Of a DNA stretch of 4,246 bases, positions 1-4,246 are shown one piece after another. This DNA is from a virus (lineage: Duplodnaviria > Heunggongvirae > Uroviricota > Caudoviricetes). The notes beneath the pieces are model-generated. The model was not told where the DNA came from, searched no databases, and saw only the letters and a program-made list of their open reading frames with translations. The stretch covers positions 1-4,246 of the IMG/VR virus record IMGVR_UViG_2778261504_000015; one strand, written 5' to 3'. The stretch's first letter is position 1, and every line of letters begins with the position of its first letter. A program made the translations under genes and the position numbers.

Positions 1-408
1 CTGGTCGGCGGAACGGTGGTCAGGCGTAAGGTTTACGCCCGTTTTCTGGATGCGGTGAACTTCGTCAACGGAAACAGCGATGCCGATCCGGAGCAGGAGG
101 TGATCAGCCGCTGGCGCATCGAGCAGTGCAGCGAACTGAGCGCGGTCAGTGCCTCCTTTGTACTGTCCACACCGACGGAAACGGATGGTGCTGTTTTTCC
201 GGGGCGCATCATGCTGGCCAACACCTGCACCTGGACCTATCGCGGCGATGAGTGCGGTTATAGCGGTCCGGCGGTCGCGGATGAATATGACCAGCCAACG
301 TCCGATATCACGAAGGATAAATGCAGCAAATGCCTGAGCGGTTGTAAGTTCCGCAATAACGTCGGCAACTTTGGCGGTTTCCTTTCCATTAATAAACTTT
401 CGCAGTAA
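1..408 (+). CDS. L: Phage minor tail protein L (tail tip complex), C-terminal 135 codons; 5' end lies upstream of the window
   Basis: Frame 1 is open from nt 1 to TAA at 406-408. The translation (...RRKVYARFLDAVNFVNGNSDADPEQE...CSKCLSGCKFRNNVGNFGGFLSINKLSQ) matches my recollection of the lambda gpL C-terminus, including the cysteine-rich segment. The track ORF 16..408 begins at an internal GTG; the true start is outside the window. It sits immediately upstream of K-I-J, as in lambda. Confidence 0.9.
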   Translation: MVGGTVVRRKVYARFLDAVNFVNGNSDADPEQEVISRWRIEQCSELSAVSASFVLSTPTETDGAVFPGRIMLANTCTWTYRGDECGYSGPAVADEYDQPTSDITKDKCSKCLSGCKFRNNVGNFGGFLSINKLSQ

Positions 409-418
409 ATCCCGGTTT

Positions 419-1162
419 ATGACACAGACTGAATCAGCGATTCTGGCGCATGCCCGGCGGTGTGCGCCTGCGGAGTCGTGCGGCTTCGTGGTGAGAACGC
501 CGGAGGGGGAGCGGTATATCCCTTGTGTGAATATCTCTGCAGAGCCGGAGGCGTATTTTCGTATTGCACCGGAAGACTGGCTGCGGGCAGAGATGCAGGG
601 GGAGATTGTGGCACTGGTCCACAGTCATCCCGGTGGTCTGCCCTGGCTGAGCGAGGCCGACCGGCGGCTGCAGATAAAAAGTGCACTGTCCTGGTGGCTG
701 GTCTGCCGGGGGGAAATTCATAAATTCCGCTGTGTGCCACATCTGACAGGACGGCGCTTTGAGCACGGGGTGACGGACTGTTACACGCTGTTCCGGGATG
801 CATACCATCTGGCGGGAATTGATATGCCGGATTTTGAGCGTGAGGATGACTGGTGGCGTAACGGTCAGAACCTTTACCTGGACAATATGGCGGTCACCGG
901 CTTTTACCGGGTGCCCCTGTCCTCTGCACAGGCGGGCGATATCCTGCTGTGCTGCTTTGGCGCATCGGTGGCCAATCATGCCGCCATTTACTGCGGCAAC
1001 GGTGAACTGCTTCACCATCTGCCTGAACAACTGAGTAAACGGGAGAGGTATTCCGAAAAATGGCAACGACGAACGCATTCTGTCTGGCGTCACCGCCACT
1101 GGCACGTATCTGCCTTCACGGGGATTTGCAACGATTTGGCCGCCGCCTCAGCCTGTATGTGA
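419..1162 (+). CDS. K: Tail tip assembly protein K: N-terminal JAB/MPN (JAMM) metalloprotease-like domain plus C-terminal NlpC/P60 (C40) cysteine peptidase-like domain, 247 aa as called
   Basis: ATG at 419 gives MTQTESAILAHARR..., 10 nt after the L stop, ending at TGA 1160-1162. A JAMM motif H-S-H-x7-S-x2-D (HSHPGGLPWLSEAD) is encoded at 620-661. NlpC/P60-like catalytic residues are Cys in GVTDCYTLF (codon 779-781), His in ANHAAIY (977-979) and the following LLHH. The track start at 371 is a TTG inside L and is not preferred. No obvious Shine-Dalgarno precedes 419, so translation may be coupled to L. Confidence 0.87.
   Translation: MTQTESAILAHARRCAPAESCGFVVRTPEGERYIPCVNISAEPEAYFRIAPEDWLRAEMQGEIVALVHSHPGGLPWLSEADRRLQIKSALSWWLVCRGEIHKFRCVPHLTGRRFEHGVTDCYTLFRDAYHLAGIDMPDFEREDDWWRNGQNLYLDNMAVTGFYRVPLSSAQAGDILLCCFGASVANHAAIYCGNGELLHHLPEQLSKRERYSEKWQRRTHSVWRHRHWHVSAFTGICNDLAAASACM
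1041..1048 (+). promoter_or_regulatory. Shine-Dalgarno for I (GGGAGAGG), embedded in K coding sequence
   Basis: Purine-rich GGGAGAGG lies 11 nt upstream of the I ATG at 1060. Confidence 0.5.
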
Positions 1163-1740
1163 ACACGGCAGCGGAAGCCATCCGTGCCCTGTCGATGCAG
1201 ATGCCGGGCTTTCGCCGTCAGATGAACGAAGGCTGGTACCAGATACGTATTCGCGGTGAGGACACGGCACCGGAGGCGGTGTACGCCCGTCTTCACGAAC
1301 AGCTGGGTGAGGGAACGGTCATCCACATTGTGCCGCGACTGGCCGGGGCCGGAAAAGGTGGACTGCAGATTGTGCTGGGGGCGGCAGCCATCGTGGGCTC
1401 TTTCTTCACTGCCGGGGCAACGATGGCGTTATGGGGTTCAGCCCTGGCAGCCGGTGGTTTTTCTGCCACCACGATGCTGTTTTCACTGGGGGCCAGCATG
1501 ATACTGGGTGGTGTGGCTCAGATGCTGGCCCCGAAGGCTAAAGTACCGGAGTACAAAAGCACGGATAACGGCAGACAGAACACGTACTTTTCCTCGCTGG
1601 ATAACATGATTGCACAGGGGAACCCGATGCCGGTGCCTTACGGTGAAATGCTGGTTGGCTCACGGCGAATCTCCCAGGACATCAGTACCCGTGATGAAGG
1701 CGGTGACGGGAAGGTGGTGGTTATCGGGCGGCAGGCATAA
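1060..1740 (+). CDS. I: Tail assembly protein I (ubiquitin-like N-terminal domain, Gly/Ala-rich hydrophobic C-terminal region), 226 aa
   Basis: ATG 1060 to TAA 1738-1740. The translation (MATTNAFCLASPPLARICLHGDLQRFGRR...GGLQIVLGAAAIVGSFFTAGAT...NGRQNTYFSSLDNMIAQGN...) resembles lambda gpI as I recall it. GGGAGAGG at 1041-1048 is a plausible Shine-Dalgarno. The start lies inside the 3' end of K in a different frame. Confidence 0.88.
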   Translation: MATTNAFCLASPPLARICLHGDLQRFGRRLSLYVNTAAEAIRALSMQMPGFRRQMNEGWYQIRIRGEDTAPEAVYARLHEQLGEGTVIHIVPRLAGAGKGGLQIVLGAAAIVGSFFTAGATMALWGSALAAGGFSATTMLFSLGASMILGGVAQMLAPKAKVPEYKSTDNGRQNTYFSSLDNMIAQGNPMPVPYGEMLVGSRRISQDISTRDEGGDGKVVVIGRQA

Positions 1741-1741
1741 A
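1734..1741. repeat. Left copy of 8-bp direct repeat GGCATAAA (includes the I stop codon)
   Basis: GGCATAAA at 1734-1741 and again at 1944-1951, bracketing about 210 bp. An 8-bp match could be chance. Confidence 0.3.
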
Positions 1742-1744
1742 AGC

Positions 1745-1777
1745 GAAAAAATCCCGCAGTGACCGAAGGCTGCGGGA
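1745..1777 (-). terminator. Putative intrinsic terminator for minus-strand transcription (hairpin followed by T-run on the minus strand)
   Basis: Perfect 8-bp inverted repeat TCCCGCAG (1752-1759) / CTGCGGGA (1770-1777) with a 10-nt loop. On the + strand it is preceded by AAAAAA (1746-1751), which on the minus strand is a T-run right after the stem. No T-run follows it on the + strand. Confidence 0.35.
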
Positions 1778-1784
1778 ACAGAAA

Positions 1785-1880
1785 ATGAAGATTAACCACA
1801 GGGAGTTTTGTTTTTATTGGCCCGAAAAAACTGTAACGCCCGGGAATGATATCTGCCACGGGGGCGTACAGAAAATGTGA
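1785..1880 (+). CDS. Hypothetical 31-aa small ORF inside the intergenic segment (MKINHREFCFYWPEKTVTPGNDICHGGVQKM); very low confidence
   Basis: ATG 1785 to TGA 1878-1880, with a weak GGGAA a few nt upstream. It is below the ORF track size cutoff, has no recognisable motif and is not hydrophobic. It lies between the two hairpins and upstream of the + strand terminator. Confidence 0.12.
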   Translation: MKINHREFCFYWPEKTVTPGNDICHGGVQKM

Positions 1881-1910
1881 AGAAATTCAGAAATTTTATT
1901 CCGTCATGAC

Positions 1911-1941
1911 ACAGGCACCCTCCGGGGTGCCTGTCGTTTTT
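1911..1941 (+). terminator. Rho-independent (intrinsic) terminator, + strand
   Basis: Perfect 10-bp inverted repeat ACAGGCACCC (1911-1920) / GGGTGCCTGT (1925-1934) around a 4-nt loop TCCG, followed by CG then TTTTT (1937-1941). Read directly from the sequence; stability was not computed. Confidence 0.65.
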
Positions 1942-1943
1942 GG

Positions 1944-1951
1944 GGCATAAA
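1944..1951. repeat. Right copy of 8-bp direct repeat GGCATAAA
   Basis: Exact match to 1734-1741; sits immediately after the + strand terminator T-run. Confidence 0.3.
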
Positions 1952-1956
1952 CAGAT

Positions 1957-1970
1957 TCAGACATCAGACA
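1957..1970. repeat. Perfect tandem heptamer TCAGACA x2, preceded by a degenerate third copy ACAGAT (1951-1956)
   Basis: TCAGACA at 1957-1963 and 1964-1970, read directly, ending immediately upstream of the J Shine-Dalgarno. Confidence 0.5.
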
Positions 1971-1980
1971 GGAGAGGGGG
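1971..1980 (+). promoter_or_regulatory. Shine-Dalgarno for J (GGAGAGGGGG)
   Basis: Strong purine-rich block ending 5 nt upstream of the GTG at 1986. Confidence 0.6.
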
Positions 1981-1985
1981 ACAGA

Positions 1986-4246
1986 GTGGGTAAAGGTGGC
2001 GGCAAGGCGCACACGCCGGTTGAGGCAAAGGACAATCTTAAGTCCACGCAGATGATGAGCGTGATTGATGCCATCGGTGAGGGACCGGTGGAAGGTCCGG
2101 TGAAGGGGCTGCAGAGTATTCTGGTGAACAAAACCCCGCTGACGGACACGGACGGTAATCCTGTGATACATGGTGTGACAGCGGTCTGGCGCGCCGGGGA
2201 GCAGGAGCAGACACCGCCGGAAGGTTTTGAGTCATCCGGCTCTGAAACCGCACTGGGCGTGGAAGTGACGAAGGCAAAGCCGGTGACGCGCACCATTACG
2301 TCCGCGAACATTGACCGCCTGCGGGTTACCTTCGGGGTGCAGTCACTGGTGCAGACCACCTCACAGGGTGACCGTAACCCGGCATCCGTCCGCCTGCTGA
2401 TTCAGCTGCAGCGTAACGGTAACTGGGTGACGGAAAAGGATGTCACCATTAACGGCAAGACCACCTCACAGTTCCTCGCTTCGGTGATTCTGGATAATCT
2501 GCCTCCCCGCCCCTTTAACATCCGGATGGTCAGGGAGACGGCGGACAGCACCACGGACCAGCTGCAGAATAAGACGCTCTGGTCGTCATACACCGAAATC
2601 ATCGATGTGAAACAGTGCTACCCGAACACGGCGATTGTGGGGCTGCAGGTGGATGCGGAGCAGTTTGGCGGTCAGCAGATGACGGTGAACTACCATATCC
2701 GCGGTCGCATCATTCAGGTGCCGTCAAACTATGACCCGGAAAAACGCACGTACAGCGGCATCTGGGACGGCAGCCTGAAACCGGCATACAGCAACAACCC
2801 GGCCTGGTGCCTGTGGGACATGCTGACTCACCCGCGCTACGGCATGGGAAAACGTCTGGGGGCGGCAGACGTGGACAAATGGGCGCTGTATGCCATTGCG
2901 CAGTACTGCGACCAGACGGTGCCGGATGGTTTCGGGGGCACAGAGCCGCGGATGACCTTTAATGCGTACCTGTCACAACAGCGTAAGGCGTGGGACGTTC
3001 TCAGTGATTTCTGCTCGGCGATGCGCTGTATGCCGGTATGGAACGGCCAGACGCTGACGTTCGTTCAGGACCGCCCGTCGGATGTGGTGTGGCCGTACAC
3101 CAGCAGCGATGTGGTGGTGGATGATAACGGCGTGGGGTTTCGCTACAGCTTCAGCGCCCTGAAGGACCGCCACACGGCGGTGGAGGTGAATTACACCGAC
3201 CCGCAGAACGGCTGGCAGACCTCCACGGAACTGGTGGAAGACCCGGAAGCCATACTGCGCTACGGGCGCAACCTGCTGAAGATGGATGCGTTCGGTTGCA
3301 CCAGTCGCGGTCAGGCCCACCGTGCCGGGCTGTGGGTAATAAAGACCGGACTGCTGGAAACGCAGACGGTGGATTTCACGCTCGGGTCACAGGGGCTGCG
3401 TCACACACCCGGTGACATTATTGAAATCTGTGATAACGACTATGCCGGGACCATGACCGGCGGACGTATCCTGTCCATCGATGCCGCCAGCCGCACCCTG
3501 ACACTGGACCGTGAGGTGACCCTGCCGGAGACAGGTGCCGCCACGGTGAACCTGATTAACGGCAGCGGTAAGCCGGTGAGCGTGGCCATCACTGCACACC
3601 CCGCGCCGGACCGGATACAGGTCAGCACCCTGCCTGATGGTGTGGAGACATACGGTGTATGGGGACTCTCCCTGCCGTCACTGCGTCGTCGCCTGTTCCG
3701 CTGTGTCTCCATCCGGGAAAACACGGACGGCACCTTTGCCATCACGGCGGTGCAGCACGTACCGGAAAAGGAAGCCATCGTGGATAACGGGGCCAGCTTT
3801 GAGCCGCAGTCAGGCACCCTGAACAGCGTCATCCCTCCGGCAGTGCAGCACCTGACGGTGGAGGTGAGCGCAGCTGACGGTCAGTATCTGGCGCAGGCGA
3901 AATGGGACACGCCGCGGGTGGTGAAGGGCGTGCGCTTCAGTCTGCGCCTGACCAGTGGAAGCGGTCAGGACAGCCGTCTGGTGACCACCGCCATCACCGC
4001 GGATACAGAGCACCGTTTCAGCGGTCTGCCGCCGGGGGAATACACCCTGACGGTCAGGGCAATTAACAGTTATGGCCAGCAGGGCGAACCGGCCACCACC
4101 ACCTTCCGGATTAACGCGCCAGCAAAACCCGCCACCATTGAACTGACACCGGGCTATTTTCAGATAACGGCGGTCCCGCGTCTTGCGGTGTATGACCCGA
4201 CGGTACAGTTTGAGTTCTGGTTTTCGGAGACAAAAATCGCAGACAT
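1986..4246 (+). CDS. J: Host specificity protein J / central tail fiber (tail tip attachment protein), N-terminal ~753 codons; 3' end beyond window
   Basis: GTG at 1986 is preceded by the strong Shine-Dalgarno GGAGAGGGGG (1971-1980). It is the first canonical start after the in-frame stop TGA at 1878-1880. The translation [39 protein letters not shown]... stays open to the window end and closely resembles the lambda gpJ N-terminus as I recall it. It is absent from the ORF track only because it has no stop within the window. Confidence 0.92.

Follow-up and report, generated by a model that had tools for sequence, protein, structure and literature searches.

A predicted minus-strand small RNA of the PasB/EcOnc22-24 family between genes I and J of a lambdoid tail module

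The I-J spacer and its features

The stretch of DNA analysed here (IMG/VR record IMGVR_UViG_2778261504_000015, positions 1 to 4,246; 4,246 nt; hereafter the window) comes from a lambdoid tail module, with the 3′ end of L (16-408), K, I and J. The RefSeq annotation of an identical segment gives the same L-K-I-J layout. Between the stop codon of I and the GTG start of J lies a spacer, called an insert in the initial annotation, that is 100% identical to the spacer of Stx2a-converting phages, e.g., Stx2_95. The I-J junction of lambda has only 60 bp and is without the spacer material of the window. In the records inspected, the spacer is annotated with the ends of the I and J genes, plus a 32-aa hypothetical protein in phage PhiR12_4 only. 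The features of the spacer are given below in window coordinates.

1740 to 1986: I-J spacer, 245 bp, between the I stop (1740) and the J GTG start (1986)
1745..1839, minus strand: predicted pasB/EcOnc22-family small RNA (sRNA), ~95 nt from the predicted start
1745..1777, minus strand: intrinsic terminator, an inverted repeat with stem 1777-1770/1759-1752, a loop and U-tract 1751-1746
1787..1795, minus strand: motif UUAAUCUUC, single-stranded, predicted seed, its columns ranking with the best conserved in the spacer
1802..1807, minus strand: motif AACUCC, anti-Shine-Dalgarno-like, from the conservation profile, within CLASH fragment GCCTGAAAAATAACTCCATAACGTTAATCTTCA
1825..1830, minus strand: U-tract UUUUUU near the sRNA 5′ end, a conserved A-run on the plus strand
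1846..1851, minus strand: -10 hexamer TATCAT, from conservation at the aligned position
1868..1873, minus strand: -35 position TTCTGT (weak), TTCACA in most variants, 16-nt spacer to the -10
1871..1910, no strand assigned: nearly invariant block of 40 bp, located upstream of the promoter of the sRNA and containing a CRP-like TGTGA-N6-TCAGA at 1876-1891
1911..1941, plus strand: intrinsic terminator just upstream of J, 10-bp stem with 7 GC pairs and CGTTTTT tail (terminator scan), not part of the sRNA
1785..1880, plus strand: reported 31-codon ORF, judged non-coding
1846-1950, plus strand: second ORF, 34 aa, wholly in the spacer, reading through the terminator hairpin

The spacer was found in 781 of 5,426 complete E. 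coli genomes, at a median of four places per positive genome, and these copies sit in different prophages. A search of species-representative genomes for the conserved right-hand block yielded E. albertii and, beyond that, just three tiny contigs from unrelated taxa, probably contaminants. The contigs belong to Asaia, Parendozoicomonas and Streptomyces assemblies (L140, L141 and L143; 460-3408 bp), carry the exact E. coli prophage block and look like assembly contamination. For the alignments, 18 spacer copies were taken from annotated phages and genomes (blastn-derived) and further copies from at least 120 IMG/VR contigs containing the conserved right-hand block. The pooled set consists of 138 copies, or 82 distinct variants, in which the conservation of the right-hand block is partly forced by the search pattern.

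Several repeats were observed at the locus. An 8-bp direct repeat, GGCATAAA, flanks ~210 bp; it was ruled out as a target-site duplication because it is at chance level for 400 bp and absent from the other spacer variants. A 10-nt exact direct repeat, ACAGAAAATG, occurs at 1778-1787 and 1868-1877. The string AAATG(TG)AAGAT is common to the sRNA motif region and the invariant upstream block, a recurrence that could be a duplication relic or a shared binding site. Two copies of a 7-nt unit (CAGACAT/CAGACAG) lie at 1958-1971, in the interval that separates the plus-strand terminator from the ribosome-binding site of J. Phage 1717 and some IMG/VR variants have 4-5 tandem copies of this unit (L007, ~640-665), and the spacing upstream of J therefore changes with copy number. 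In some copies of the spacer, IS66-family elements are located at or just after the J start (L002, 3242-3997; L009, 664-1026), and J is truncated beside the spacer.

The minus-strand small RNA and its published homologues

A covariance model built from 22 alleles, with all window-type sequences excluded, matches the minus strand of the window at 1839-1743 with 69 bits (E=6.7e-12), covering all 96 model positions. With this model, the published sRNA PasB scores 95.9 bits, the complete 46-kb Stx2_95 genome gives a single strong match and the lambda I-J junction gives none. The only other match of the model in the window is the bare hairpin on the plus strand (10 bits). A weak match (19.7 bits, E=0.14) was seen at L148 17132-17218 on the minus strand, downstream of stx2B. 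The region is the stx2 moron, from which the convergent sRNAs AsxR and EcOnc27 have been described, and the match probably reflects only generic terminator and U-rich similarity. Rfam returned no family match for the spacer alone on either strand with E up to 10. In the 46-kb Stx2_95 genome, blastn-short with the sRNA yielded chance 9-12-mers only; a cognate target or second sRNA copy in that genome was ruled out on these chance-level matches.

The RNA is predicted to fold into an essentially unstructured body followed by the terminator hairpin. An unstructured body with conserved motifs, ending in a GC-rich hairpin and U-tail, is the standard build of Hfq-dependent base-pairing sRNAs. The terminator of the window consists of the stem plus U6, and a GC-rich hairpin followed by U6-8 is conserved in 81 of the 82 variants, with a loop of 4-16 nt and with compensatory stems (CCCACAG/CUGUGGG and CUCCCG../..CGGGAG). 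If the 5′ end is that annotated for PasB, which maps to the 3′ edge of the U-tract at 1825-1830 and is equivalent to window position 1825, the RNA would be ~81 nt long. The -10 hexamer predicts a start at ~1839, which is ~15 nt upstream of this position. Because the two placements differ, the 5′ end is uncertain by ~15 nt.

PasB (pathogenicity-associated sRNA B) is encoded in prophage PP6 of EPEC E2348/69, where it has been validated by northern blotting and shown to depend on Hfq for its stability (Pearl Mizrahi et al., 2021, PMC8550237). It was reported among the sRNAs with many trans partners (37 RIL-seq interactions) and to be higher under the non-activating growth condition (PMC8550237). 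PasB is annotated at NC_011601.1 (minus strand, 1466343-1466261; 83 nt) and was detected with the northern probe AATCCCGCAGTGATCGCGGAGCT (PMC8550237), which is the plus-sense left hairpin. The PasB locus falls between I and J of PP6, and the spacer there can be aligned with that of the window from end to end. PasB has since been described as embedded in a phage structural operon, with matches in NC_011356 and NC_049945 (Zhu, Shabalina and Storz, 2026 preprint). Both records are among the spacer matches found here, and NC_011356 carries a window-type allele (94% identity). The seed of PasB has been proposed to lie just upstream of the terminator, in a region that includes the UUAAUCUUC motif (Zhu, Shabalina and Storz, 2026 preprint). 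UUAAUCUUC is the likely seed of the window sRNA.

EcOnc22, EcOnc23 and EcOnc24 are homologous orphan Hfq-binding sites in Sp15, Sp14 and Sp11 of EHEC O157:H7 Sakai (Tree et al., 2014, PMC4104026, Table S2). They were shown to have an Hfq-CRAC peak and a ~85-nt northern band, and to be destabilised in an hfq deletion (PMC4104026). RNase E-CLASH chimeras of these RNAs contain GCCTGAAAAATAACTCCATAACGTTAATCTTCA in minus sense, with ECs5028 and ECs5349 as partners in 1-2 hybrids (PMC4104026; Waters et al., 2017, PMC5286369). The UUAAUCUUC motif is contained in the chimera fragment. The targets of the PasB/EcOnc22-24 family are listed as unknown in a review (PMC7873438).

Table S2 is based on an older version of the Sakai genome, and the offset from NC_002695.1 to.2 (+135 to +137 nt) was calibrated via HnrS/EcOnc10, from its complementarity to the mazF 3′ end, and via CLASH reads (exact). 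The EcOnc22/23/24 coordinates fall in Sakai I-J spacers that align with the window, on the strand opposite the tail genes, and the offset-corrected Hfq peak is the stretch homologous to window ~1822-1762 (minus strand). The northern probe is window plus sense (~1771-1805). The GcvB and EcOnc01 probes show that the oligos of Table S2 are antisense, and the EcOnc22/23/24 RNA is thus placed on the minus strand, abutting the left hairpin. The PasB and EcOnc22/23/24 probes both fall on the left-hairpin terminator element.

Homology, position and orientation are shown here by direct comparison. The location between I and J, opposite the tail genes, is shared by the window, E2348/69 PP6 and Sakai Sp11/14/15, and the similarity extends over the full length of the RNA in sequence and structure, from the covariance model and the identities to the 3′ GC hairpin and poly-U terminator. 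Over the RNA, identity is 76% for window and PasB, 74% for window and EcOnc22 and 75% for PasB and EcOnc22. Judged by these pairwise identities, the family comprises no fewer than three diverged alleles. In the PasB paper, Table S6 gives EHEC homologues for PasA and PasD and leaves the note for PasB blank (PMC8550237). In the literature searched, no paper was found that links EcOnc22-24 to PasB. An identity with PasA, PasC or PasD was ruled out, since their sequence fragments and contexts differ from the I-J locus.

The promoter and the terminator are conserved together with the RNA. At the -10 position, TATAAT occurs in 34, AATAAT in 20 and TATCAT in 19 of the 82 variants (73/82 together). 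A consensus scan identified TTCACA-16-TATAAT, with 11 of 12 matches, at the homologous place in two majority alleles (L011 and L018). At threshold, the scan made no call in the window and likewise none in the expressed Sakai allele, whose -35 is equally poor. The 40-bp block upstream was kept in 18 of 18 blastn-derived variants, including those with the downstream hairpin replaced. Its TGTGA-N6-TCAGA sequence has 14 of 22 matches to the 22-bp CRP consensus (half-sites 5/5 and 4/5) and is centred ~44.5 bp upstream of the predicted sRNA start. The class II activator position of CRP is 41.5. CRP as a class II activator was rejected on this spacing, the site being at no canonical class I or class II position.

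Short reading frames and the hairpin before J on the plus strand

A 31-codon micro-ORF had been proposed between the two hairpins of the spacer. The ATG-to-TGA frame at 1785-1880 exists as described and encodes MKINHREFCFYWPEKTVTPGNDICHGGVQKM, a polar and basic peptide that is, as stated, not hydrophobic. The flanking hairpins are also present (1752-1777 and 1911-1934, the latter followed by CGTTTTT). The frame is not the only one wholly inside the spacer on the plus strand, as had been claimed, since 1846-1950 encodes a 34-aa ORF; this second frame is almost certainly spurious. ORFs of 20 aa or more number 64 in the window, and only four of them correspond to real genes; a 31-codon ORF is therefore not above chance.

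The ORF is not conserved. Its aligned start is ATG in 44 of the 82 variants and ACG, ACA or AAA in 38 (65 of the 138 copies). Variants with the start have ORFs of 16-56 codons, 61 of 81 variants have a span whose length difference from 96 nt is not divisible by three, and the peptide sequences are unrelated beyond about codon 10. In a copy ~99% identical to the window (L009), a 1-nt deletion cuts the ORF to 16 codons. Start and frame are not kept among the homologous copies, and disruption of the frame in otherwise conserved copies is what the initial annotation, which rated the micro-ORF low, had itself named as counting against it. The 31-codon ORF is almost certainly not a gene. It is a by-product whose first codons complement conserved sRNA motifs. 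The UUAAUCUUC motif is the reverse complement of the ORF start, and the 'MKIN' start looks conserved because the ATGAAGATTAA of the ORF is the reverse complement of the sRNA UUAAUCUUCAU. Other frames were rejected as well. The alternative plus frame MSRQK...VKM, with an AAGGAG-like motif upstream in some alleles, is closed in 48 of the 82 variants. By reasoning, in a minus-strand 73-aa GTG ORF at 1638-1859 the best conserved columns coincide with third codon positions, and the other minus frame has no start codon.

Variability over ORF codons 1-10 (1785-1814) has a period of three, with entropies of 0.26/0.59/1.03 at the three positions. The signal has a permutation p=0.006 (~0.018 corrected for three frames) and is the top of 215 sliding windows, in a test made on just 30 columns, all from related sequences. 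Codons 2-8 have a pN/pS of 0.32. Neither this ratio nor the period-3 pattern is expected under an RNA-only model. The 46-kb Stx2_95 genome has no other MKI..KEL peptide and no matching gene or complement. The signal is held to be a weak curiosity because it comes from 30 related columns, the start is missing in nearly half of the variants and there is no such gene or complement in that phage genome; it may be due to chance. Speculatively, it could point to a seed that mirrors the 5′ coding end of some target, or to a ~10-codon peptide translated from the late mRNA in some alleles.

The plus-strand terminator at 1911-1941 is real according to the terminator scan. The initial annotation considered it the end of a non-coding RNA of 100-200 nt. 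In kind, an sRNA is indeed what the spacer is documented to hold in its homologues; its strand, terminator and length are different, as the documented RNA is on the minus strand, ends at the left hairpin (1777-1745) and not at 1911-1941, and is ~81-95 nt long. One compensatory pair of the right hairpin is C-G in 39 variants versus U-A in 35, and stem position 1918/1927 has wobbles allowed in the plus sense only in 6 variants versus 1 in the minus sense. In ~18-20 variants, an unrelated hairpin module replaces the right hairpin.

These replacements are seen in PPompW_EH2201 (L018, ~560-740) and ~18-20 IMG/VR variants, where an insertion ~100 bp longer takes the place of the terminator. The replacement hairpin, CCCCGGTATC-TGCT-GATACCGGGG, lies between A-rich and T-rich runs, and the sRNA gene and the invariant block are retained. 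In the lambda I-J spacer (L145, 165-195), an 8-bp hairpin, AAACCGCC-TGCG-GGCGGTTT, followed by TGTCATTT, was found by eye just before J; the terminator scan did not call it. The lambda hairpin hints at an ancestral origin for a pre-J hairpin at this junction.

A plus-strand promoter was called in none of the window, Sakai, PhiR12_2 and PPompW alleles, and candidates picked by eye were poor. No Hfq peak is listed on the plus strand at the three Sakai loci. In the CLASH tables, J-leader reads are absent and the one plus-sense read lies over the left hairpin. Since neither a plus-strand promoter nor an Hfq peak nor a J-leader chimera was found, the right hairpin is regarded, with moderate confidence only, as a late-operon feature upstream of J and not as the end of an sRNA.

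Interpretation, rival readings and known systems

The best explanation is very probably that the window carries a minus-strand allele of the PasB/EcOnc22-24 sRNA family, Hfq-dependent and trans-acting, encoded in an I-J moron that opposes the late operon. Such a 'moron'-type sRNA gene between lambdoid I and J would be transcribed against the tail operon, from ~1839 to ~1745 on the minus strand, using a predicted sigma-70 promoter with the -10 TATCAT at 1851-1846 and a weak -35. Its product would be a ~81-95-nt, largely unstructured RNA with the motifs AACUCC and UUAAUCUUC and a hairpin/U-tail terminator, and would act by Hfq-dependent base pairing in trans. Transcription, size, Hfq dependence and RNA-RNA chimeras are drawn from the literature on homologues only and would apply to the window by analogy. 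We infer the expression of the window allele, its exact 5′ end, its seed and its targets; the allele is only ~75% identical to the two experimentally studied alleles that are the source of all expression data.

Could the plus strand hold the functional product instead? Translation of the 31-codon ORF at 1785-1880 into a small protein would explain the ATG with its weak purine-rich stretch upstream, the 32-aa hypothetical protein annotated at the homologous place in PhiR12_4, the period-3 variability of codons 1-10 and the low pN/pS of codons 2-8. However, the start is lost in 38 of 82 variants, lengths range from 16 to 56 aa, 61 of 81 variants break the frame, the ~99% identical L009 is frameshifted to 16 aa, the peptides are unrelated beyond ~codon 10 and MSRQK...VKM, the other plus frame, is closed in more than half of the variants (48 of 82). 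The period-3 signal comes from 30 related columns, no plus-strand promoter was found, and the peptide is neither hydrophobic nor otherwise toxin-like. Translation thus appears to be largely refuted by the comparative data, and it is very improbable. Even more remote is a type I toxin-antitoxin system in which a plus-strand toxin ORF is repressed by the minus-strand antisense RNA. An antisense Hfq-binding RNA does cover the start of a small ORF, and there is a terminator on each strand, but the peptide is polar, basic and unconserved, its start is missing in nearly half of the variants, no plus-strand promoter was found and no Rfam toxin-antitoxin RNA matched. The pair that defines such systems, a conserved small hydrophobic toxin with its antisense RNA, is not what the spacer encodes. 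A plus-strand sRNA of ~60-160 nt ending at 1911-1941, perhaps alongside the minus-strand sRNA in an overlapping or divergent pair, is decidedly unlikely. It would draw on the strength of the 1911-1941 terminator with its compensatory C-G/U-A pair and plus-sense-only wobbles, on the Hfq-module-like layout in which the near-invariant 1871-1910 block ends U-rich beside the hairpin, and on the AT-rich, near-palindromic -10 region, where divergent initiation is conceivable. Against it are the scanned alleles, none with a plus-strand promoter call, the three Sakai loci, with no plus-strand Hfq peak listed, and the CLASH data, without J-leader reads and with a sole plus-sense read over the left hairpin. 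In addition, ~20 variants swap the hairpin for an unrelated one and keep the block, and lambda, which is without the sRNA, also appears by eye to have a pre-J hairpin and T-run. The swapped hairpins, the lambda hairpin and the lack of plus-strand RNA signals together suggest that the pre-J hairpin is a late-operon feature.

A further question concerns how the minus-strand RNA acts. Acting mainly in cis, it could be an antisense RNA to the I-J part of the late tail mRNA, from the same prophage or from siblings, and so tune J synthesis or mRNA processing. By construction, it is fully complementary to ~95 nt of the I-J late transcript; positive genomes have a median of four copies in different prophages, and divergence among the alleles is greatest in the central body, a possible basis for specificity groups. 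This mode is nevertheless unlikely to be the main one, given the many trans partners of PasB in RIL-seq and the chimeras of EcOnc22-24 with chromosomal mRNAs, and the late operon is silent in lysogens, where the RNAs were detected. A broader version, in which PasB-family RNAs are allele-specific cis/trans antisense regulators of the tail operon that set prophage 'specificity groups' for J synthesis, is speculative and has little probability. If it were true, resident prophages could modulate the synthesis of J, the host-range protein, of their own or sibling phages after induction.

Under the preferred reading, a trans-acting sRNA of the PasB/EcOnc22-24 family, the element is an already published prophage sRNA family that had been read from the wrong strand, and as such has little discovery value. 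The comparison does show PasB of EPEC and EcOnc22/23/24 of EHEC as alleles of one family in one fixed I-J slot. The family is without an Rfam model, and its annotation could start from the coordinates, promoter, motifs and terminator described above. The invariant 40-bp block with its CRP-like site and the plus-strand terminator before J are features beyond what the known sRNA family explains.

Other sRNA genes of lambdoid prophages offer a comparison. HnrS (EcOnc10/11/12) is a 66-nt multicopy prophage sRNA that represses hha (PMC13502914). Like the window sRNA, it belongs to a multicopy, Hfq-associated type in the late region of EHEC/EPEC lambdoid prophages, and the octamer UAAUCUUC is common to both. 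Its locus is different, between the lysis and terminase genes, its sequence is unrelated and it belongs to a separate family; it was located at L006 ~2372-2437 with CTTCTACCCAATCAGTAC. The window spacer has neither CTTCTACCCAATCAGTAC nor the 15-nt complementarity to the mazF 3′ end and the CUUCUACCC-hha RBS pairing that mark HnrS. A 66-nt HnrS ending at 1911-1941 was ruled out on the lysis-terminase locus and the unrelated sequence. HnrS pairs with hha via CUUCUACCC, of which the PasB/EcOnc22-24 family has only CUUC, and a common HnrS-type seed against the hha RBS GGGUAGAAG was ruled out on this ground; duplex energies of full-length sRNAs were judged meaningless in the hha comparison. The anti-sRNAs AgvB and AsxR and the convergent pairs at the PR′ site are also 'moron'-type sRNA genes of the late operon (Tree et al., 2014). 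They differ in being inserted downstream of PR′/stx, in their length of 51-60 nt and in their sequence, and their Rfam families (RF02702 and RF02703) have no match in the spacer.

The closest known systems are the published alleles themselves. PasB differs from the window in its central body and terminator loop, and in its promoter, with -35 TTCACA versus the weaker TTCTGT of the window and -10 TATAAT versus TATCAT. It has the same I-J slot, orientation, terminator hairpin with U-tail and -10/-35 position, and the motifs AACUCC and U(U/G)AUCUUC are common to both. EcOnc22/23/24 are set apart from the window by a 5-nt deletion and a diverged centre, and they agree with it in slot, strand, terminator and motifs.
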